DNA of 61,269 nt, the filler included. It is 7 parts of 7 records of this genome, joined end to end, with 100 filler letters (N's around TTAATTAATTAA, not from the genome) between each part and the next. Parts side by side here need not be neighbours in the genome. Positions count along the whole stretch, not along the records: positions 1 to 7,142 come from DRR723986_16083; 6 more parts are not named here. One strand, given 5' to 3'. This document shows, one piece after another, positions 1 through 57,627 of the stretch. The notes under the pieces were generated by a model. It saw only the letters and a list, made by a program, of their open reading frames with translations, was not told the DNA's origin and ran no database searches. Made by a program: the position numbers and the translations under genes. How positions within the stretch are numbered: the first letter of the stretch is position 1; each line of letters opens with the position of its first letter.

Positions 1-26
1 ACTCGGTTCGGCAATCTAAAAATTGC

Positions 27-45
27 CTAACTTTAGCCAAACGTT
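27..45 (+). repeat. 19-bp direct repeat CTAACTTTAGCCAAACGTT, copy 1 (promoter-like / recombination-site-like)
   Basis: Identical to 785-803. Contains TAACTTTAG, which resembles the Bacteroidota -7 element TAnnTTTG, and ends in GTT. Confidence 0.85.
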
Positions 46-89
46 AGGGTTAATTGTGGAATCTGAATCTAAAAAGCATCAAAACAAAA

Positions 90-608
90 ATGAAATCATT
101 ATCTGCACTTTGTTTGAGTCTATTTTCAATTCTGACTTTCGGACAGCAAAACATTTTAGCTAAATATGAAATGTCCGAATGTAGTTCTGACGATTTGGAA
201 ATCAAATCAATCGGCAGAATACTTTCCTTCGAATTCAAAAATGATAGAGCTAGACTTATCGTTGAAGGAATTGCTAACTGCGAAGGAGTGCACAATCTCT
301 CGATAAATCTGAGTTCAGACTCATTAATGATTGACTTTACGGAAGGTAAATTAATTACCCACGATTCTATCGAAATTGACAGCCTTTTTGAAATAGAAAT
401 CGAGTCCTCTATTGATGAAGGCATAGTTCTCGTTGAAACAGATCAAGTTGAGGACACTATTTTCGTTAAATCCAAATATGATCACAACGAAAGAAAAGAA
501 ATTTTGACCGCGTTTTGCACCTGCTGTTTCACTTTTACATTTGATATGATTGGTCTAGATCCTAAAAAAGAATACACTGTATTTTACAAAGGGAAGCCAA
601 TAAAATGA
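90..608 (+). CDS. Hypothetical secreted protein (Cys motifs NCEG, CTCC)
   Basis: ORF 54..608; ATG at 90 gives the signal peptide MKSLSALCLSLFSILTFG-QQ, typical of Bacteroidota. Confidence 0.75.
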   Translation: MKSLSALCLSLFSILTFGQQNILAKYEMSECSSDDLEIKSIGRILSFEFKNDRARLIVEGIANCEGVHNLSINLSSDSLMIDFTEGKLITHDSIEIDSLFEIEIESSIDEGIVLVETDQVEDTIFVKSKYDHNERKEILTAFCTCCFTFTFDMIGLDPKKEYTVFYKGKPIK

Positions 609-722
609 ACTAACTAACCCTAACTTAATAAGTAAATATCATTCCTCCCTTTTGTCCATCACTTTTCCCTCCCATATGCTTGTCCAAAGGCCTGGGGTGC
701 CAGTATGGGCAGAATGACTTGT

Positions 723-744
723 ACCTGTCTACCGACAGGCAGGT
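723..744. repeat. REP-like short palindrome ACCTGTCTACCGACAGGCAGGT
   Basis: CCTGTC-tacc-GACAGG hairpin in a GC-rich patch of an AT-rich contig. Resembles, from recall, the CCTGCCTGCCGGCAGGCAGG-type intergenic repeat of Bacteroidota. Confidence 0.55.
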
Positions 745-784
745 CCGGGGGGTTGGCCAGTGCACCTCACGCCACAATAAATTG

Positions 785-803
785 CTAACTTTAGCCAAAC
801 GTT
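785..803 (+). repeat. 19-bp direct repeat CTAACTTTAGCCAAACGTT, copy 2
   Basis: Identical to 27-45. Continues as GTTGAGC (GTTRRRY) and ends 22 bp before the ATG at 826. Confidence 0.85.
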
Positions 804-825
804 GAGCTACATTACGAATTGACAA

Positions 826-1590
826 ATGGGATTATTCAGCAGAAAGAAAATAGAGCCACCAATTAATGAGCAAAATAGGGTTTGGATGGAACAAAATTTT
901 TCGTGGCTTTTACATGAATTTAATGACATTCCTCTTAAAAAAAGAAAAATCTACATTCCGTCAAAAGAAGATTTTCCGTTGAAATTTGAAGATACACCTG
1001 AAACAGCCGAAAAAGTGGTTTCGATCATTGCAGACGCCATGAATATTGAAACCAACAATCTATCTCTTCAAATGTTTTCTAACGGCATTAAAGAATTTAG
1101 TTATGGCTCTTCAATTTTATTTACCGCCAAAGAGAATAATTCCGAAACAGCTGGCTCCTATCTTAAAGGTAAAGATGGAAAGTATACAATAAGCCTTGAC
1201 AAAGCTCTATTGACACAGGGTGAAAAGTTAATTGCAACAGTTGCTCATGAACTCGCTCATGTTAAATTACTAGGAGAAGAAAGAATCGAAGAAAATGATG
1301 AGCCGCTAACAGATTTAACTACAATCCTTTTTGGATTTGGAATATTCAATGCAAATTCTTCATTCAATTTTACTGCAAATCATTACTCTTGGGGCTATTC
1401 AAAGCTAGGATATTTACCACAAAACGAATGGGGCTATGCCTTGGCTCTTCTAGCTTATTGCAGAGAGGAAGATAATCCCAGTTGGGTACAATATCTTAAT
1501 AAACAAAGTCAAGCAGATTTTAAAAAATCAATGAAATTCATTCTTGCCAATGAGGATTTAATCTGGAAAATACCAGATGGTGAAAACTAG
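826..1590 (+). CDS. Hypothetical protein with HExxH zinc-metallopeptidase motif
   Basis: 254-aa ORF containing ATVAHELAHVKL and a downstream acidic NDEPLTD. Confidence 0.75.
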   Translation: MGLFSRKKIEPPINEQNRVWMEQNFSWLLHEFNDIPLKKRKIYIPSKEDFPLKFEDTPETAEKVVSIIADAMNIETNNLSLQMFSNGIKEFSYGSSILFTAKENNSETAGSYLKGKDGKYTISLDKALLTQGEKLIATVAHELAHVKLLGEERIEENDEPLTDLTTILFGFGIFNANSSFNFTANHYSWGYSKLGYLPQNEWGYALALLAYCREEDNPSWVQYLNKQSQADFKKSMKFILANEDLIWKIPDGEN

Positions 1591-1688
1591 GCGTTACAAA
1601 TTGACTGATTTAAGTTGCCAAAGACCTGCTCACACTCAAACCCAACCCACCATTAATTTGCTATTTTAGTCAAAATCAATTCTAATCA

Positions 1689-2414
1689 ATGAAAGTATTT
1701 ATTCAAACAGATGAGGCCGGGGAATTCTACAATGTCAATGCTTACGTTGCAGCCACAGGTTTTAAATCTCTCGGATTTGAAGTACACAAATACATTGATG
1801 CTGAAGAAGTTTCAGACAAAGATCCTTCTTCAATTTTTGTAGGAGGCGTTGGAATGGTGCGCAAACGCCTGACCAATCTTGGTATTGACAAACCAGATGA
1901 AAAAGAATATCCTGCCGAGTTGCAGCATTTTCTAAACCGAAAAGTTTGGACATCCACCCTCAACGAATTGATTCAAAATGAACAGACCGGCATTTTTATT
2001 AAACCCACCCAAACCAAACTGTTTCAAGGTAAAGTTATCAAGCGATTTGGAGATTATATTGGCTTAAAATATGATGAAGAGGTGGAAGTTTGGTGTTCAG
2101 AAATAGTTGAACTACTGACCGAATGGAGATGTTTCATTCGCTATAAAGAAATCTTAGATATCAGGTATTATAAAGGAAATTGGGACAGTCGCTTAGACCT
2201 TGAAATTGTGCGAGACGCCATATCCAAGTATACAAGCCAACCGCATGCCTATTGTTTAGATTTTGGCGTTGATGCTGATGGAAAACATTACTTGGTTGAA
2301 GTGAATGATGGACACAGCTTAGGCACTTACGGAATGGGAGCTATTTCTTATGCTAAATTCTTATCGGCCCGTTGGGCGGAGCTAACTGAAACCGAAGACC
2401 CTTTAAATTTTTGA
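1689..2414 (+). CDS. ATP-grasp domain protein (DUF4343/R2K-like)
   Basis: Motifs FIKP, EWRCFI, YCLDFG and LVEVND. Confidence 0.8.
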   Translation: MKVFIQTDEAGEFYNVNAYVAATGFKSLGFEVHKYIDAEEVSDKDPSSIFVGGVGMVRKRLTNLGIDKPDEKEYPAELQHFLNRKVWTSTLNELIQNEQTGIFIKPTQTKLFQGKVIKRFGDYIGLKYDEEVEVWCSEIVELLTEWRCFIRYKEILDIRYYKGNWDSRLDLEIVRDAISKYTSQPHAYCLDFGVDADGKHYLVEVNDGHSLGTYGMGAISYAKFLSARWAELTETEDPLNF

Positions 2415-2476
2415 AAATCAGATGTATACTGAAAGCTTTATATTTGACGCATCCGAGAATTATTAATTATCAATTA

Positions 2477-2530
2477 ATGTCAAGATTTGTTTTAGTCATT
2501 TTAGCTTCATTATGTTGTCTGCAACTTTGA
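2477..2530 (+). pseudogene. Possible gene remnant: signal-peptide-only ORF MSRFVLVILASLCCLQL*
   Basis: Consensus TATATTTG (-7 element) at 2439-2446, then an ATG and a hydrophobic signal-like peptide ending at a TGA. Confidence 0.35.
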
Positions 2531-2566
2531 GCAAACAAATGTCAATGCCGATTTTCAAGACTTTTC

Positions 2567-3412
2567 TTAAAGGAAACTCCAACTTAAACCAACCCCTCCA
2601 GTCATACCGATAATTTCATCTCCAAACATATCTCTTTTATCAGCTGGTATTGAAAATCCTAAATGATATTTAAATCCGAATCTTCCTTTTCTATTCCAAA
2701 CCGTAGCGTTTCCATCAATATAGATTCTAAAACCATAATTATTCGTATTGGCAACACTTATAGCTTCGTATTCATCAGGAGTGTAACTTGCGTGACTCCC
2801 AGGATAAGAATGGTTGAAAAACCAAAGGAAATCTGCGTGAAGGGCAACAATTTTATGTCCTCTTCTTGAAGCATATTTAGAGCTAATTCCATAGTTTCCG
2901 TGTTTGACTCTTAAAAAAGTAAATCCAGTGGCCATAGAACTAGCCCAGTGCTCAAAATTACTTGATTGATACACTTGCTGTTTAAAATGGCTGTATCCAA
3001 GATGCGGACCTATTGAAAATCCTTTTTTAATAGGTAAATCTGCAACATACTTGGTTGCAATACCACTTTTACTAAAATCAATTGATTGTCTCATAGTCTT
3101 ATCCTTGGTCCAAGATTTAATAAAATAATTACCATCTACACCGGCTCCAAGTCCAAAGTAGCTGTTAATTAAAAATTTATCCGGTTGATAATATGAAACA
3201 CCTGCGAAACTCATTCTGTCAGCACCAACAATTCCTCCCACCCAAAAATTGAGCTTCTGAATATCTTTATAACTATCGGATAAAACAAAAACTCTATATT
3301 TTTTACCGCTTCCTTCGTAGTATAGCGTGTCTTTTATATCTATCTGTGAAAACGCCTTATTCACAGAAAAAATCAATAAAAAAAGTACAATTGAAAATTT
3401 TAATGTGCTCAT
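2567..3412 (-). CDS. Hypothetical secreted / outer-membrane protein
   Basis: 281 aa, signal peptide ...AFS-Q, aromatic- and Gly-rich beta strands, ends GLSWSFL. Confidence 0.75.
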   Translation of the reverse strand: MSTLKFSIVLFLLIFSVNKAFSQIDIKDTLYYEGSGKKYRVFVLSDSYKDIQKLNFWVGGIVGADRMSFAGVSYYQPDKFLINSYFGLGAGVDGNYFIKSWTKDKTMRQSIDFSKSGIATKYVADLPIKKGFSIGPHLGYSHFKQQVYQSSNFEHWASSMATGFTFLRVKHGNYGISSKYASRRGHKIVALHADFLWFFNHSYPGSHASYTPDEYEAISVANTNNYGFRIYIDGNATVWNRKGRFGFKYHLGFSIPADKRDMFGDEIIGMTGGVGLSWSFL

Positions 3413-3429
3413 AACAATTAGATCTTCGT

Positions 3430-3437
3430 CAAAGGTA
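3430..3437 (-). promoter_or_regulatory. Bacteroidota -7 promoter element TACCTTTG
   Basis: Matches TAnnTTTG about 18 bp upstream of the ATG at 3412. Confidence 0.6.
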
Positions 3438-3661
3438 GTATTAAAACCCCTGATTTTATTCGGTTTTAATCAAAGTCTTGTTATCAAAAGGTCAAAAACA
3501 ATATCATTATCGCTTTGTACAATTTTCAGATGTTAATAGACTTTGAGTCAAATTGATTTACTGAATATTCGTATAGATTCTGAAAAAGACAGCACCGGTG
3601 GGCCCAACTGACCTATATAAATAATAATCAGTATCTTGGGATTGAATCAAAACTTATAAAT

Positions 3662-4633
3662 ATGTCAAAAATTTACTTTTTTGCTGCAGGAATTCTTGTA
3701 GCCGGAGCTTTATCAGCTCAACCTACCCTAACTCAGGCTAACCACGCTCCTACCATAGGAGAAACCTTTACAAACGTTCAAGGTACATGGGATGGCACTA
3801 TTCCGGCATCAGGCGCAAATCAAACCTGGGATTTTAGTGGATTAACCATGTCTTCAACTCAAATGTTAGAATATAAGGCACCTGTAAATTGTACAGCCTA
3901 TATGGATTTTCCTGGTGCAACCATTGGTGGTGATGCGGATGCCGGAGCGACATTTTCTTATTCAGACTATACAAGCACGCAACAAGAGAATTATGGTTAT
4001 CATATTACTTCTCAAGGAGTATCGCAGTTCTATAATAATCCTGAAGTAATGATGGTTTATCCATTTACAATGGGAACAACAAATTCAGATTACTTTGAAT
4101 CTACTTTTTTTAGTGGTGTTACCTGGTATAGAAGCGGAACAACAACTATTGAGGCGATAGGATATGGAGAAGTTATTCTGCCAACAGGTACAATATCTAA
4201 CGTTTTACTCTATAAGTTAGAGCAAGATTACCAGGACAGTAGTACTTCATTGACTAACCAATATCAAAGTGAAATTTATTTGTGGGCTAAACCTGGCTAT
4301 CACAATACAGTATTAGGCTTAACTAAATTCACTTTTGGAGGTAACTCAAGTTATACGTCCACCTATGATTCAAACCCATCTTTAGGGAATAGTGAAATTG
4401 AGTCAACAAGTTTAACAATTTTCCCTAACCCTGTAGAGGACGTTTTAAACTTGAACTATAGTAATTCAGCGGATATCACGGAAGTTTTAATAACCAACGT
4501 AGCGGGACAAAATGTGTATTCATCACAATATTTCGAAAACAAAATTAATTTAGAACACCTTATTGAAGGAATCTATTTTATTGAATTATCGGTAGGAGAA
4601 GATAAAGTGGTCAAAAAATTCGTCAAGAAATAG
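3662..4633 (+). CDS. T9SS type A sorting domain-containing protein
   Basis: Signal peptide plus C-terminal IFPNPV...GIYFIEL...KKFVKK. Confidence 0.9.
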   Translation: MSKIYFFAAGILVAGALSAQPTLTQANHAPTIGETFTNVQGTWDGTIPASGANQTWDFSGLTMSSTQMLEYKAPVNCTAYMDFPGATIGGDADAGATFSYSDYTSTQQENYGYHITSQGVSQFYNNPEVMMVYPFTMGTTNSDYFESTFFSGVTWYRSGTTTIEAIGYGEVILPTGTISNVLLYKLEQDYQDSSTSLTNQYQSEIYLWAKPGYHNTVLGLTKFTFGGNSSYTSTYDSNPSLGNSEIESTSLTIFPNPVEDVLNLNYSNSADITEVLITNVAGQNVYSSQYFENKINLEHLIEGIYFIELSVGEDKVVKKFVKK

Positions 4634-4649
4634 ACAAAGTCAACTATTG

Positions 4650-4680
4650 AAAACCAGCCGCTCGGCTGGTTTTTTTTTTG
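4650..4680 (+). terminator. Rho-independent terminator
   Basis: AAAACCAGCCG-ct-CGGCTGGTTTT followed by a long T run. Confidence 0.85.
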
Positions 4681-4808
4681 CTTTTTTTTAGGTTGGTAAA
4701 GATTGAACTAAAATCGGAACATGGATTCAAATTAGCATTGTTCTTTTTGCATCAATTTAAACCCGTATCAAAAATAATTTCTATCTTTTGACAAGTCCAA
4801 TTGCCCGA

Positions 4809-7106
4809 ATGTTAAAAACGATAGTATTACCACTTGCCCTTGTTTTCTGTTGCACACAGACTTATGGTCAAATTGATTCACTAAAAAATCAGTTGGACTC
4901 AGAAAAAGATGCGAAAAAGAAATTCGATCTCTTCATTGAAATCGGCAATCAATACCGATCACAGCAAATCGACTCATCAATTTATTTTCATCAAGAAGGT
5001 TTAAGTCATTCTGATCAGGCATTAACATCTGAATTGAATTTATGTGCAGAAAATGAATTGGCTTACAACAAAGTACTTGCCGGAGAAGTTGATCTGGGTA
5101 AGAGCGAATTGATCAAAATCAATGCCGCGATTAATGAAGAACTAGATAAAAAAAATCGCCCTACTTACGCATTTGACCTTCAAAAATCCTTAGCCCTTAA
5201 CTTTAAATACCAGGCGCATGTTGCTCAAAAACAAGACAGTTTATTATTGGCTGTGGGTTATTTTGAAGCAGCCATTGACGCCGCCTTTATCATTCAAGAC
5301 TTAGATATTTTATCGAAGTTATTTGATGAAGTGGCACGAACACATTACATGTTAGGTGCCTTTCCACGATCATTGGAGTACTGCCTCAAAGGCATAAAAA
5401 TCAATGAAACTCGAGGTGATAAAAAAGGAGTAGCCTCAAGTACTGGCAATGCCGGAATTCTCTTTAAAGAAATGGGAGAATTTGAAAGTGCCCTTGAGTA
5501 TTTTCAATTAGCATTGTCATTAAACGAAGAATTAGGGCACGAACGCTCAATCGCCATCAATTTAGGAAATATCGGAGTGGCCTATGATAAATTGGAGCAA
5601 TATGATTTGGCTTATGAATACTTTAACCGTGCCGCGAAGATGCATCAGGAACTCGGAAGTACGGAAGGCCTGATTTACAACTTCAATAACATGGCCCTCA
5701 TTCATCAAAAACGCGAAGAATATCAACAGGCGATAGATTTTTTTGAAAAGGCGTTGAACTATTCTTTAGAGAATGAAAATCATTACACTTATGCACATAC
5801 ATGTATTTATTTGGGAGGTGTCTATAAAGATCAATTGCTTTATTCTAAAGCACAATTCTATTTAGATGAGGCTGGCGACTACTGCAAGAAAATTGGTGCG
5901 CTAGATCTCTTGTCAGAATATTATCAATTGCAAAGTGTAGTTTATGAAAAAACCGGTAAATACGCCTTGTCCTTAGAAAACTTTAAAAGATACACTGAGG
6001 TCAAAGATTCTATTCTAAATGAAAACAACTTGCGAAAAGTATTTCAACTTGAAAACAACTATAAAATGGATCAGCGGATTGCACAGGACAGTGTCACTCA
6101 CGCTAAAGAAATTTTATTGCACCAAGCTGAATCAGATCAGAGAAAGGCTGAGTTAAAAGCAGCCAGGTTATCCCAGTTCGGATTGGTCATAGGCTTATTA
6201 TTTCTTGTTGGATTTATCATCCTCATTTATAAAAGATTCCAAACCTCAAGAAAACAAAACCGCATCATTCTCAAGCAAAAAGAAGAGCTTCATTTTCAAA
6301 AAGACCAAGTTGAATCTCAAAAAGAAGCGCTAGAATCTAAGCAAAAGGAAATTGTGGATTCCATTAATTATGCGAAGCGAATTCAAACGGCAATTCTGCC
6401 TCCTATGAAATTGTTTAAATCAGTTTTTCCTGAGAGTTTTATTCTTTATAAACCAAAGGATATTGTAGCGGGAGATTTTTATTGGCTCGAAAAGAAAGAC
6501 GATCTGATTTTTGTTGCTGCTGCAGATTGCACCGGTCATGGTGTGCCTGGAGCCATGGTATCCGTAATATGCCATAGTGCGCTTAACAGAAGCGTACGTG
6601 AATTAAAATTAACAGAACCAGGCGAAATTCTTGACGCTACTAAAAAAATGGTGATTGAAGAATTTGAAAAATCTGAGGATGACGTAAGAGATGGTATGGA
6701 TATTTGTTTGTGTGTGATAAAACCAGATGCTAATGGAGGTGCATCAATAAAAATGGCAGGAGCCAACAATGCCCTACTGGTTATTCGAAAAAATGCAGCT
6801 GAATTAGAAGAAGTAAAAGCAGATCGACAACCTGTAGGAAAGCATTTCATTGATAAACCATTTACATCAACGGCTTTATCGCTCAATAAAGGAGACCAAA
6901 TTTACCTATCAACTGATGGATTCTACGACCAATTCGGAGGAGAAGATAGAAAGAAGTTTAAGGTCTTAAATTTCAGAAAACTACTTATTAAAGTGAGTGG
7001 GAATGAACCTGATGAACAGATGGAAAAACTCGATCATGAGTTTGAAACTTGGCGTGGGGAATACGAACAAATTGATGATGTCTGCGTGATGGGAATACGC
7101 TTCTAG
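4809..7106 (+). CDS. TPR-repeat sensor with TM helix and SpoIIE/PP2C (RsbU-like) phosphatase domain
   Basis: TPR repeats, TM segment FGLVIGLLFLVGFIILIY, motifs VAGDFYW, AADCTGHGVPGA, DGMD, TDGFYDQFGG, QIDD. ATG at 4809 preferred. Confidence 0.92.
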   Translation: MLKTIVLPLALVFCCTQTYGQIDSLKNQLDSEKDAKKKFDLFIEIGNQYRSQQIDSSIYFHQEGLSHSDQALTSELNLCAENELAYNKVLAGEVDLGKSELIKINAAINEELDKKNRPTYAFDLQKSLALNFKYQAHVAQKQDSLLLAVGYFEAAIDAAFIIQDLDILSKLFDEVARTHYMLGAFPRSLEYCLKGIKINETRGDKKGVASSTGNAGILFKEMGEFESALEYFQLALSLNEELGHERSIAINLGNIGVAYDKLEQYDLAYEYFNRAAKMHQELGSTEGLIYNFNNMALIHQKREEYQQAIDFFEKALNYSLENENHYTYAHTCIYLGGVYKDQLLYSKAQFYLDEAGDYCKKIGALDLLSEYYQLQSVVYEKTGKYALSLENFKRYTEVKDSILNENNLRKVFQLENNYKMDQRIAQDSVTHAKEILLHQAESDQRKAELKAARLSQFGLVIGLLFLVGFIILIYKRFQTSRKQNRIILKQKEELHFQKDQVESQKEALESKQKEIVDSINYAKRIQTAILPPMKLFKSVFPESFILYKPKDIVAGDFYWLEKKDDLIFVAAADCTGHGVPGAMVSVICHSALNRSVRELKLTEPGEILDATKKMVIEEFEKSEDDVRDGMDICLCVIKPDANGGASIKMAGANNALLVIRKNAAELEEVKADRQPVGKHFIDKPFTSTALSLNKGDQIYLSTDGFYDQFGGEDRKKFKVLNFRKLLIKVSGNEPDEQMEKLDHEFETWRGEYEQIDDVCVMGIRF

Positions 7107-7142
7107 TTTATTAGTATCGTTCTATAAAAGCACCGATCAATT

Positions 7143-7242
7143 NNNNNNNNNNNNNNNNNNNNNNNNNNNNNNNNNNNNNNNNNNNNTTAATTAATTAANN
7201 NNNNNNNNNNNNNNNNNNNNNNNNNNNNNNNNNNNNNNNNNN
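7143..7242. other. Artificial contig linker
   Basis: 44 N + TTAATTAATTAA (stops in all six frames) + 44 N. Confidence 0.99.
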
Positions 7243-53651: not shown

Positions 53652-53751
53652 NNNNNNNNNNNNNNNNNNNNNNNNNNNNNNNNNNNNNNNNNNNNTTAAT
53701 TAATTAANNNNNNNNNNNNNNNNNNNNNNNNNNNNNNNNNNNNNNNNNNNN
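53652..53751. other. Artificial contig linker
   Basis: 44 N + TTAATTAATTAA + 44 N. Confidence 0.99.
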
Positions 53752-56700
53752 AAACTGGGCTTTACCACCCAATGGTTGCTGTGTCACCAACGAGTAAGGT
53801 CCGGTTGAACGGGCGTGCATCTTATCGTCCACCAAGTGGTGCAGTTTCAGCACATGCTTGTAACCGACAGTAACCTTGCGATCGAATGCATCACCGGTGC
53901 GACCGTCGTACAAGGTCACCTGGGTTTTCGATTCATTCAAGCCAAGAGCCTGCACGCGTGGGTCCTCGTCGGGGTAAGCCAAGCGAAGCATCTCGAGAAT
54001 GTCTTCTTCGTTCGCACCGTCAAATACCGGCGTGGCGAAAGGCATACCCTTGGTCAGGTTTTTACCCATGTTGATAATTTCCTGGTCAGTCAGGGAATCG
54101 AGGTCAACCGTGGTGCCTGTGCCGTTGTACACCTTGTGCAAGTATTCACGAAGGCGGGCTACCGCATTTTGTTCGCGCAACATTTCATTGATACGATCGC
54201 CGATGCCCTTGGCAGCCCAACCCAAGTGGGTTTCCAGAATTTGGCCCACGTTCATACGCGAGGGAACACCCAAGGGGTTCAACACGATGTCCACGGGACG
54301 ACCATCGGCCATATGCGGCAGATCTTCCACAGGAACGATCTTGGAAACCACACCCTTGTTACCGTGACGACCGGCCATTTTGTCACCGGGCTGCAAGCGA
54401 CGCTTCACTGCCAGATACACCTTGACCATTTTCAGAACTCCCGGGGGCAGTTCATCACCTTGCGTCAACTTTTTGCGCTTTTCCTCAAAGGCCAGATCAA
54501 ACTGATGGCGCTTGTCCTCGATTGACTTCTTCAGTGTTTCGAGTTGACCAGCAGCTTCCTCTTCGGCCAGACGAATGTCGAACCAATGGTGATGATCAAC
54601 TTCTTTCAGGTACTCAGCGGTAATCTTGCTGCCCTTGGCCAACTTGGCGGGTCCACCATTGGCAACTTTACCAATCAAGAAACGCTCAATACGACTGAAG
54701 GCGTCAGCCTCAACAATACGCATCTGGTCATTCAAATCGAGGCGATAGCGCTTGAGTTCATCATCAATAATGGACTGCGCACGCTTGTCGCGAACGATGC
54801 CTTCGCGGGTGAACACCTGAACGTCGATCACCGTGCCTGTCATGCCAGAAGGCACGCGCAACGACGTGTCTTTCACATCAGATGCTTTCTCACCGAAAAT
54901 TGCGCGAAGCAGTTTTTCTTCAGGAGTCAACTGGGTTTCGCCTTTTGGCGTGACCTTGCCAACCATCACATCACCAGCCTGAACTTCTGCGCCGATGTAC
55001 ACGATGCCGGATTCATCCAGACGTGACAACTGCGCTTCGGAAAGATTGGAAATGTCGCGGGTAATTTCTTCGGAACCCAACTTGGTGTCGCGGGCAACCA
55101 CTGACAGTTCTTCAATGTGAATTGAAGTGTAGCGATCCTCGGCAACTACGCGCTCGGAGATCAAAATTGAGTCTTCGAAGTTGTAGCCGTTCCAGGGCAT
55201 AAACGCGACCAGCATGTTCTGGCCCAAGGCCAATTCACCGAGGTCGGTGGATGCACCGTCAGCGATTACATCACCTTTTGCAATGATGTCACCCTTGTTG
55301 ACAATCGGACGCTGGTTGATGTTGGTGTTCTGGTTAGAACGTGTGTACTTGGTCAGGTTGTAGATGTCTACGCCCACAGAACCGGGCTCCACCTCGTTGT
55401 CATTGACTCGAATCACGATGCGGTTTGCATCCACGTAATCAACAACACCGCCATGATCAGCAACGATCACGGTGCCTGAGTCAACAGCCACAGTGCGTTC
55501 AATGCCTGTGCCCGCGAAAGGCTTTTCAGGACGCAGACAAGGAACGGCCTGACGCTGCATGTTTGCACCCATCAAGGCACGGTTCGCATCGTCGTGTTCC
55601 AGGAATGGGATGAGAGATGCCGCAACAGAAACAATCTGGCCCGGCGCCACGTCCATCAGCTCAACGCCTGACGGATCCATCAATTCGAATTCACCAGCTA
55701 CACGACAGGACACCAAATCGCCGACCAGTCGCTTCTTGTCGTCGATCTCCGCGTTCGCCTGAGCGATTACGAAACGGCCTTCTTCAATCGCAGACAGGTA
55801 AACGATTTCATCCGACACCACACCGCCTTCCACTTTGCGGTAAGGCGTCTCCAGGAACCCGTACTCGTTCAAACGAGCAAACATCGCCATGGAGTTGATC
55901 AAACCGATGTTTGGACCTTCCGGTGTTTCGATCGGGCACACCCGACCGTAGTGAGTGGTGTGTACGTCACGAACCTCAAAGCCAGCGCGCTCACGAGTCA
56001 AACCACCAGGACCCAACGCGGATACGCGACGCTTGTGAGTGATTTCAGACAAGGGGTTGGTTTGATCCATGAACTGAGACAGCTGGGATGAACCAAAAAA
56101 CTCCTTGATTGCTGCGGAGATCGGCTTGGAGTTGATTAGATCGTGGGGCATCAGGTTCTCGGCTTCAGCCTGACCCAAACGCTCTTTCACTGCACGCTCC
56201 ACACGCACCAGACCGGCCCGGAACTGGTTTTCAGCCAATTCGCCTACGCATCGCACACGACGGTTACCCAGGTGATCGATATCGTCGATTTCGCCATTGC
56301 CGTTGCGCAAGTCGACCAGAATCTTGATCACGGCAAGAATATCGTCGTCTTGCAAAACCATCGCGCCTTCCACTTCTGGACGGCCAACACGACGGTTGAA
56401 TTTCATGCGACCCACACGCGACAAGTCGTAGGAATCTTCACTGTAGAACAGACGGTTGAACAACATTTCAACTGCCTCTTCCGTGGGCGGTTCGCCTGGG
56501 CGCATCATGCGATAGATGGCTACACGGGCAGCAGTTTGATCCGCTGTTTCGTCAGTACGCAGGGTTTGAGAAATGTAAGCACCATGATCCAGCTCGTTCG
56601 TGAAAATTGTCTCAACAACTTTCACGCCTGCATCACGGATTTTGCCCATGATTTCTTCGGTGATTTCATCGTTGGCGGAGGCTACAACCTCGCCAGTGCT

Positions 56701-57627
56701 TGCATCTACGATGTTCTTGGCCAATGTTCGGCCGATCAGGAAGTCTTCAGGAACCGAAATCTTCTTCAAGCCAGCAGCTTCGATGTCGCGAATGTGCTTG
56801 GCATTAATACGCTTGTCTTTCTGAACCAGAACCTTGCCCGTTTTGTCCACGATATCAAACTTGGCAACTTCACCTTTCAAACGCGAAGTGACCAGATCCA
56901 TGGATGCGCCCTCGGATTTGATTTCGAACTGATCGAACTCAAAGAAGGTGGACAAGATCTGCTCATTGTTCATGCCAATGGCTTTGAGCAATATTGTCAC
57001 CGGCATCTTGCGACGACGGTCTACGCGGAAATACAAGATGTCTTTGGGATCGAATTCGAAATCGAGCCAAGAGCCGCGATAAGGAATGATACGGGCCGAG
57101 AACAGCAACTTGCCAGAACTGTGGGTTTTACCACGGTCGTGTTCGAAAAAGACGCCAGGTGAACGATGCAACTGAGACACGATAACGCGTTCAGTGCCGT
57201 TGATCACGAATGAACCGTTTTGTGTCATGAGTGGTAATTCACCCATGTACACTTCTTGCTCCTTCACTTCTTTCACAGTGGGCTTGCTGGCTTCACGATC
57301 CAGAAGTACCAGGCGCACACGGGCACGCAAAGGTGAGCAGAAAGTCAGGCCACGCTGTTGACATTCTTTGACGTCAAAAGCGGGTTCGCCCAATGCGTAC
57401 TGTACGAATTCCAAGCGAGCGTAACCGTTGTGCGAAACAATTGGAAATACAGACTGAAATGCTGCCTGTAACCCTTGTTCTGCGCGTTTTTCAACGGGAA
57501 CACCCAATTGAAGAAAGTCAGTGTAAGAGTCAAGTTGAGTGGTGAGAAGATACGGAACATCCAAAACTGGAGGCCGTTTCGCAAAGCTTTTGCGTATGCG
57601 TTTTTTCTCGGTGGCAGAGTAAGACAT
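53752..57627 (-). CDS. rpoB: RNA polymerase beta subunit, 3'-partial
   Basis: [35 protein letters not shown]. Confidence 0.99.

Follow-up and report, generated by a model that had tools for sequence, protein, structure and literature searches.

Sedentary chromosomal integrons, such as the Vibrio cholerae array with its VCR-type attC sites, combine long arrays of co-oriented cassettes, mostly with a single open reading frame (ORF) each, with a tyrosine recombinase and an attI site that head the array. Each cassette has an imperfect palindrome that folds through its R'', L'', L' and R' boxes, bears AAC...GTT and leaves a central spacer unpaired; the boundary lies at G/TT (the slash marks the cassette boundary throughout), R boxes are complementary within the cassette, and sites are alike within a genome. 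These traits recur, with an attI-like site in place of attI, in the system described here, which is represented at positions 1–803 of a window of 61 269 nucleotides (the whole joined stretch of DNA that was analysed, filler included). We put the probability at roughly 85% that positions 1–803 are the distal end of a gene-cassette array of the integron type in a marine member of the Crocinitomicaceae (Flavobacteriales). The original prediction had seen cassettes of a poorly described Bacteroidota system in this stretch, a core inference that is supported by the dispersal of the repeat motif, by start-to-end complementarity in 30 of 39 cassettes of one relative, by the neighbourhood of the following gene (gene 2) in another relative and by arrays headed by a recombinase. 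The finding concerns the first 7.1-kb contig only, because an artificial spacer separates positions 1–7143 from another organism's DNA.

By function and anatomy the system is an integron; by current definitions it is not a member, because its recombinase is without the IntI-specific insertion and scores under the curated cut-off of the model TIGR02249, the recombinase gene points in the same direction as the array and has attI at its 3' end, and the sites, at up to about 205 nt and with several inner stems, are longer and more branched than usual. Further departures from sedentary integrons are the nearest kinship of the recombinase with archaeal XerA, its extra N-terminal domain, the retention of GTTRRRY only as GTT plus R, and an invariant TAnnTTTA in L'. 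Xer/dif-dependent modules (pdif modules, IMEX) are built on double-stranded dif-like sites of about 28 bp; they share an Xer-like tyrosine recombinase with the arrays described here, but lack long folded sites, R boxes whose complementarity is cassette-specific, and arrays next to a dedicated recombinase. Archaeal integrons likewise place integron-type arrays outside the classical host range, mostly in metagenome-assembled genomes (MAGs), but archaeal IntIs keep the IntI-specific additional domain (10.1101/2022.02.06.479319), which is absent here. The IntegronFinder papers use the term CALIN for clusters of attC sites without an integron integrase (PMC9024848). The window taken alone resembles such a cluster, with two sites less than 4 kb apart on a contig without recombinase; unlike a CALIN, the contig start truncates one of the two sites, and both are part of a system that does not use IntI.

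For Bacteroidetes, a passage of the IntegronFinder 2.0 paper mentions only In0 elements from earlier work and one complete integron, in Salinibacter ruber (PMC9024848), two reviews list Bacteroidota among integron-bearing phyla in passages that give no detail, and part of a tyrosine-recombinase survey describes the insertion as 'not fully conserved' in an integron-like subgroup (PMC8138268). A search of the literature outside subscription journals returned no paper on Crocinitomicaceae or Flavobacteriales cassette arrays, or on an integron-like system whose recombinase is without the insertion; the sole paper found with both 'Crocinitomicaceae' and 'integron' concerns, in the excerpted part of its text, metallo-beta-lactamases (PMC13616975). 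Integrons are defined in practice by an insertion-bearing integrase and, so defined, are near-absent from Bacteroidota; here, a marine and freshwater family of Flavobacteriales has arrays of 30–40 cassettes with attC-like sites and an Xer-like enzyme without the insertion. If that enzyme recombines the arrays, the insertion would not be generally required for hairpin-site cassette recombination, surveys keyed to IntI would undercount such systems, and a large reservoir of cassette genes, most of them unknown, would open to study in abundant aquatic bacteria.

The 19-mer CTAACTTTAGCCAAACGTT occurs exactly twice in the window, on the plus strand at 27–45 and 785–803, as claimed before, and no third copy appears with up to three mismatches. 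The expected number is 0.03, and two or more copies arose in 0 of 100 shuffles; a 14-mer with up to two mismatches is less telling (two or more copies in 4 of 100 shuffles). The identity between the two copies does end after GTT, and upstream it goes on with one indel (AAATTGC). Gene 1 is bracketed, as had been noticed, by GTTAGGGTTA (43–52) and its exact reverse complement TAACCCTAAC (615–624), 6 nt past the TGA stop at 606–608, the cassette start GTT+AGGGTTA matching TAACCCT+AAC at 10 of 10 nt. GTTGAGC (801–807) precedes gene 2, again as described, and the reverse complement of 801–810 was found nowhere downstream within 4 kb. In the first repeat copy a small hairpin (GGCAAT 10–15, ATTGCC 22–27), L' (27–37), the spacer CCAAAC and R' (GTT, 43–45) are recognizable; position 1 lies inside this copy, so DNA to its left is outside view. 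An nhmmer profile built from 54 sites of relatives, with the window row excluded, found no further site in the 7.1-kb contig beyond the truncated and the complete one, and Rfam at gathering scores returned only a tRNA in the window and nothing in the repeat region.

Beyond the window the motif is dispersed in arrays of many Crocinitomicaceae genomes, as would be expected of the proposed cassette system. When species-representative genomes were scanned for the 19-mer, 36 loci came up, five of which (L009, L023, L024, L029 and L032) are chance matches inside genes of unrelated bacteria; the 31 others are distinct copies from Crocinitomicaceae/Flavobacteriales MAGs, one of them on a 4-kb contig that had been binned into a Lentisphaeria MAG. 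The 31 copies all have 70 nt or more of GC-rich upstream sequence in common, and conservation ends exactly after GTT, where 7 variable nucleotides and ATT follow. The exact reverse complement of GTT plus these seven nucleotides (GTT+7) lies 150–1900 nt downstream in 16 of 33 copies of the repeat family, most of the loci ending 2 kb past the match, and in none of three unrelated copies tested. The next repeat, where in view, comes 170–185 nt after this reverse complement, and the 5' half of the element reads AAAAC-N7-AAC-AYAGTAG-STAAAGTT....

We collected 59 distinct complete sites of 72–205 nt from Crocinitomicaceae genomes and aligned 55 of them, leaving out three identical-length repeats of a 104-nt class and one site that runs off its locus. 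The sites run from R'' (N7+AAC) through a 6-nt spacer, L'' (e.g. GCTAAAGTT) and a variable GC-rich middle to a small hairpin (GCAA-TAAA-TTGC), L' (AACTTTAGC), the spacer CAAAC and R' (GTT). RNAalifold recovered both the R and the L stem from the 55 sites, with compensatory changes at four L positions (GC 38 / AU 11 and CG 33 / GC 18, for example); the R stem is paired at 99.1% and the L stem at 94.5%, with four covarying pairs. Under a hand-written four-helix structure 88.9% of cells pair, compared with 23–42% when the partners are slid, double-sided changes number 115 versus at most 25 in the slid controls, and the covariation score was reached in 0 of 500 shuffles. In integrons, extrahelical bases in the L box set strand choice; here the L stem aligns 9 with 9 and shows no bulge, whereas the two sides of the spacer differ in length (6 versus 5 nt) and T251 is invariant and mostly unpaired. 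The base after GTT is A or G in 53 of the 55 sites. The predicted fold is the architecture of an integron attC site. That full copies fold as attC-like hairpins holds for a well-formed site (L048:1746–1928), which as single-stranded DNA takes an attC-like shape at −28.8 kcal/mol (z −2.17, 7 of 200 shuffles as good), and does not hold for the window's own site (z +0.68). The small hairpin 5' of L' (A1 columns 205–208/246–249; window 774–785 and 10–27) keeps its pairing through double changes such as GGCA/TGCC, GCCA/TGGC and GCCAATT/AATTGGC.

The complete site in the window is unusual within this family. Its L'' (TAAGTAAATATCA) pairs 9/9 in three other sites with the L' CTATATTTACTC, but its own L' is CTAACTTTAGCC, which leaves 5 of 9 L pairs, the lowest among the 55 sites (9 pairs in 33, 8 in 19, 7 in 2), and its small hairpin is mismatched as well. 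The site appears to be a hybrid of two site classes, perhaps through homologous exchange in the shared middle, and is structurally defective; cassette 1 is a true cassette, but is probably immobile now. The hybrid nature and the mispaired L stem explain why the original prediction took the partner arm of the hairpin to be absent: L'' is conserved and covaries with L' across the system, and in the window it lies at 631–639 in the form of the other site class. The two readings offered with that claim, domesticated half-sites or insertions at dispersed attI-like promoter sites, give way to the decayed far end of a real array. The visible part is thus a decaying array end with one true cassette followed by a former cassette or by flank, because gene 2 has no site of its own and its ortholog in a relative has no site 3' end within 6 kb.

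No recombinase was found among the ORFs and Pfam matches of the 7.1-kb contig, in agreement with the earlier observation that no integrase is in view, and the tyrosine recombinase sought beside an array heads the arrays in relatives. In genome G001 it is encoded at 205487–206647 of a 778-kb contig, and about 30–50 nt past its stop lies an attI-like sequence (...GGAATAAAACCCATGGGTTTTATTCAAACGTT/ATGAATA), after which at least 39 co-oriented site ends extend over 39 kb, up to position 246100 (39 on the plus strand and 0 on the minus strand across 100 kb). The exact reverse complement of a cassette's own GTT+7 occurs inside 30 of these 39 cassettes and in 0 of 37 in a control with the neighbouring cassette; the expected complementarity between the first ~10 nt and the end of each following gene was thus found. 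Genome G009 has, on a 4.37-Mb contig, the recombinase, an attI-like site and then 27 sites ending in ...AAACGTT over about 31 kb. The G009 recombinase gene (L071, G009:C1:2329872–2331026) has one in-frame TAA, so that the array may be frozen or the sequence in error. G003 and three contigs of G005 show the recombinase followed by a hairpin, RAASGTT/ and the kind of start that cassettes have, in most cases where the contig ends, and with G058 included such an attI-like site stands 30–70 nt past the recombinase stop in G001, G003, G005 (three contigs), G009 and G058. This site adjoining the recombinase is a candidate entry point for cassettes. Recombinase homologs at E 1e-60 or better are present in 68 of the 121 genomes of the family, and in 24 of 36 minus-strand matches their 3' end is no more than 2.2 kb away from where the contig begins, as would follow if assemblies broke at repeat arrays. 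In G102, whose recombinase is 59% identical, a search for the site 3'-end motif gave nothing, and a repeat search gave the variant 3' end TATTTTAGCCTAAACGTT.

The recombinase encoded beside the G001 array has a SAM_4 and a Phage_integrase domain. It scores 245.7 bits with NF040815 (an XerA/integron-integrase model; cut-off 220) and 201.3 bits, in two matching stretches, with the integron-integrase model TIGR02249, below that model's cut-off of 265; XerD gives 200.2 bits. The IntI-specific insertion is absent, because 28 residues (284–311) stand opposite 70 residues (177–246) of the VchIntIA chain (2a3v). The best solved relatives are archaeal XerA proteins by sequence (4a8e, 5hxy), and XerA is also the best by fold. 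An extra conserved N-terminal domain of about 100 residues is modelled confidently (block-mean pLDDT 89–95 over residues 11–80) and matches no Pfam family, with Atlas scores of at most 0.86. Its best fold match is the N-terminal domain of T4 UvsW (Z 6.3, rmsd 2.2, 62 aligned residues), followed by XPB N-terminal domains (Z 5.2–5.4), all below the tool's meaningful level, and the modelled likeness to UvsW/XPB may serve as a lead only.

Signs of cassette movement come from duplicates and from other assemblies. Cassettes recur at other array positions within G001 and within G009, and two also lie on a second contig of the same genome. Two G001 copies with different neighbours (221323 and 229308) are identical over 595 nt except for one C/G in L', and their identity starts inside the CCAAACGTT before the cassette and stops inside the CCAAACGTT of the cassette's own site. 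The C/G difference (L048 near 1905 versus 9890; G001 221908 / 229893) affects a covarying L' pair, so that one of the two L stems mispairs, and could be a mutation or the trace of an exchange that took place leftward of the CCAAAC spacer. Contigs from other public runs agree with the window as far as position 45 or 47, where they pass into other cassette starts, and one contig has gene 2 behind a different site end (...CAAACGTTAGCATT). A contig of DNA runs X1 and X2 matches from 1633 rightwards and has to its left 1461 nt of other DNA that ends attC-like, before gene 3.

Two further observations concern cassette content. A cassette of 468–469 nt (GTTATGAATA...) with a 104-nt site has six copies at 91–100% identity (starts at 208976, 211454, 213549, 217654 and 218123 in L047 of G001, and at 239073 in L048), with a further copy apparently located after attI and ahead of the first site. 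None of its ORFs is convincing (the plus strand offers 49 aa, the minus strand 58–68 aa), so that this cassette, which may multiply inside the array, is perhaps non-coding or encodes a small protein. The cassettes at 229903, 233436 and 242420 in L048 (G001) have ORFs that look, by eye, like toxin–antitoxin or zeta-toxin-like ATPase genes, a kind of cargo often found in chromosomal integrons.

The system may be pictured as follows. A cassette extends from the TT of one ...CCAAAC-G/TT to the G of the next, and usually comprises one co-oriented ORF and a site of 72–205 nt. As a single strand the site folds like attC, with a variable region enclosed by an R stem of 7 cassette-specific nucleotides plus AAC/GTT, a 6x5-nt unpaired spacer and a 9-bp L stem. 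Arrays of the relatives start 30–70 nt past the stop of the co-oriented XerA-like tyrosine recombinase, at the attI-like site. This recombinase would exchange strands at G/TT between two folded sites or between a site and attI, excising and inserting cassettes as integron integrases do, despite the missing IntI-specific insertion and the extra N-terminal domain of about 100 residues. The data show the anatomy, the covariation, the complementarity specific to each cassette, the linkage of arrays to the recombinase and the duplicates with exact boundaries; the catalysis by the XerA-like recombinase, the single-stranded substrates and the crossover point we infer.

Three other explanations of the repeats have to be weighed against a cassette array. 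The repeat could be a transcription module, spread for its sigma-A −7 box and perhaps a terminator-like structure and not as a recombination site. Such a module would account for the TA..TTTA that is invariant in 55 of 55 sites, including T251 and A252, which need not pair, for related boxes upstream of ordinary genes (TAnnTTTG in 16 and TAnnTTTA in 8 of 61 regions) and for cassette ORFs that begin a median of 17 nt past GTT; yet it leaves unaccounted for the complementarity of GTT+7 to sequence at the opposite end of its gene (30 of 39 versus 0 of 37), the long-range covariation of L'' with L', the recombinase-headed arrays and the exact-boundary duplicates, and we hold it to be very improbable. 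A role in transcription could exist as a second function, not as the sole one. Slightly less credible still are selfish palindromes of the MITE or REP kind inserted between genes with no cassette logic. The repeats are indeed structured, GC-rich, 70–205 nt long, highly repeated and intergenic, but array copies are all co-oriented (39 plus versus 0 minus over 100 kb of G001) and alternate one-to-one with ORFs, terminal inverted repeats of their own or target duplications are lacking, and the partner of the site ends is the beginning of the gene unit before them and not each other's flanks.

The remaining alternative accepts the sites as attC, which their anatomy (AAC...GTT, R and L boxes, unpaired spacer) invites, and holds that an ordinary integron is served by a classical IntI encoded elsewhere, the neighbouring Xer-like gene being a bystander. 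MAGs are incomplete and a classical intI could have escaped; however, TIGR02249 reaches its cut-off in 0 of 5 array-bearing genomes, the best match in each being the gene that adjoins the repeats, and the recombinase with its attI-like site heads arrays or faces contig ends in all five genomes with such a site (G005 with three contigs). We regard this explanation as improbable, though the least so of the three.

Several observations weigh against an integron-type array as the source of positions 1–803. The 7.1-kb contig has zero recombinases and one complete site, so that its membership in an active array is deduced from relatives, and the bottom strand of the window site, folded as single-stranded DNA, lacks the R/L architecture, with 151 of 200 shuffles at least as good. 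A joint that skips cassette 1 was found in none of the contigs of four runs, several parts being uncovered in the DNA runs. In G001 the complement of the own core is missing from 9 of the 39 cassettes, and the crossover point can be placed no more exactly than somewhere in the CCAAACGTT stretch, since the duplicates differ in L' inside the unit. The 68 of 121 genomes are a count of recombinase homologs alone, with arrays not checked at the homologs of 35–47% identity; the recombinase copy of G004 (45% identity) has no such site within 16 kb downstream, and that of G112 none nearby downstream.

A promoter had been proposed within the repeat, and we regard it as plausible and compatible with the data, if somewhat short of an even chance. 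Short leaders are usual in integron cassettes anyway, which weakens the case for a promoter. The −7 box of Flavobacterium psychrophilum sigma-A is TAnnTTTG at −12 to −5, with a median 5' untranslated region (5'UTR) of 24 nt, according to part of one report (PMC9723704). In 61 regions upstream of ordinary genes of these loci, TAnnTTTG occurs in 16 and TAnnTTTA in 8, against a background of about 0.5–0.6 per kb, so that the former is strongly and the latter mildly enriched. Among 113 distinct cassette starts, a co-oriented ORF of at least 50 aa begins within 60 nt of GTT in 75, at a median of 17 nt, and a start 5 nt past the box would imply leaders some 22 nt long. The TA..TTTA in L' is invariant even at T251 and A252, whose partners are not conserved. 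Against a promoter speak the box itself, which matches 7 of 8 consensus positions and has A in place of the consensus G in 55 of 55 sites, the lack of a TTG at the usual −33 distance (in an alignment read by eye), and the attI-like sites, which also carry TTTATTC, so that the invariance could equally reflect recombinase binding. Contigs of RNA run X3 are 100% identical on 65–350, 1155–1415, 1720–1948, 2837–3120, 3703–3965 and 4085–4628, with none on 629–785; they show neither start, strand nor true transcription and are neutral on the promoter.

A wider conjecture, which we offer tentatively and think more probably wrong than right, is that every L' doubles as a sigma-A −7 promoter, so that each cassette would arrive with, and be transcribed from, the promoter of the upstream site with a start about 5 nt before the crossover, and that an Xer-type enzyme without the IntI insertion recombines these hairpin sites. 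The whole array would then be expressed and not silently stored with a single Pc promoter in front of it, selection would go on preserving the 3' half with its promoter once a site can no longer recombine, as in the hybrid site of the window, and the extra N-terminal domain would perhaps read folded DNA. A promoter in each site would alter the usual view of how array genes are expressed.

Table 1. Features of the 7.1-kb contig and its right-hand border in the window.
Feature	Positions	Strand	Remarks
3' end of attC-like site, truncated by contig/window start	1–45	+	nhmmer 10–55, E 8e-8
−7-box-like motif TAACTTTA inside L'	28–35	+	predicted start near 40
Cassette 1: gene 1 and its own attC-like site	44–803	+	from the TT after the first GTT's G to the G of the next GTT
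Gene 1, 172 aa	90–608	+	ORF; N-terminus, by eye, signal-peptide-like; matches no family
Complete attC-like site of cassette 1	609–803	+	nhmmer 612–812, E 3.8e-31, window row left out
5' half of site 609–803: R'', spacer, L''	615–624, 625–630, 631–639		L'' is AGTAAATAT
Middle of site 609–803: extra hairpin, small hairpin	near 728–746, 774–785		variable, GC-rich
3' half of site 609–803: L', spacer, R'	787–795, 796–800, 801–803		L' is AACTTTAGC; R' is GTT
Second TAACTTTA box	786–793	+	predicted start near 798; predicted gene 2 5'UTR about 28 nt
R' of last site and next 7 nt (GTT GAGCTAC)	801–810	+	followed by conserved ATT, 811–813
Gene 2, 254 aa	826–1590	+	HExxH motif; follows last site; own attC-like site not recognizable
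Gene 3, R2K-clade ATP-grasp protein	1689–2414	+	PF18299, 147 bits; flank or former cassette
Artificial spacer, N runs around TTAATTAATTAA	7144–7243	none	joins contigs of different organisms

Of the genes in the 7.1-kb contig (Table 1), gene 1 matched nothing in Pfam, NCBIfam or PADLOC, and genes 1–4 together drew nothing from PADLOC or NCBIfam; relatives of gene 1 amounted to one 24-residue match in genome contigs, with no exact 34-mer match in metagenome contigs. Gene 2 has a SprT-like Pfam match of 22.6 bits, below the cut-off of 25.6. Its ortholog (71% identical) in a Crocinitomix genome (L057) lies in another neighbourhood with zero shared neighbours, so that gene order is not conserved in this relative, as a cassette origin had led one to expect; the 3' end of a site (L'-R' motif) was not found within 6 kb of the ortholog. 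At the end of that ortholog (L057:6755–6800), TGAAAAC-CAAACAT-AAC-AAAAAGTAATTTTAC resembles an R''-spacer-L'' half-site and may be a relic of cassette origin. A decayed site after gene 2 in the window (1582–1685; by eye, GAAAAC-N7-TAC...TTTGCTATTTTAGTCAAAATC) was considered and dropped, the nhmmer profile being silent there even at E 100, and no decayed site was found after gene 3 either. The flank in the window and the far flank of the G001 array have nothing in common except SpoIIE-type paralogs. Genes 2 and 3 could form a functional pair; the L057 ortholog of gene 2 has no gene 3 after it.

The window joins several contigs, positions 1–7143 at 34–37% GC and the remainder, from a different organism, at 45–65% GC, with rpoB at 53704–57627 in the higher-GC DNA to the right of the spacer. 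The 7.1-kb contig is Bacteroidota-like, with a T9SS sorting domain in gene 5 and the gene 2 ortholog in the Crocinitomix MAG. At 36% GC, this Crocinitomicaceae-like array-end contig was probably mis-binned with the higher-GC DNA, and the 4-kb array contig filed under the Lentisphaeria MAG (L006) is, by appearance, a similar case of mis-binning.

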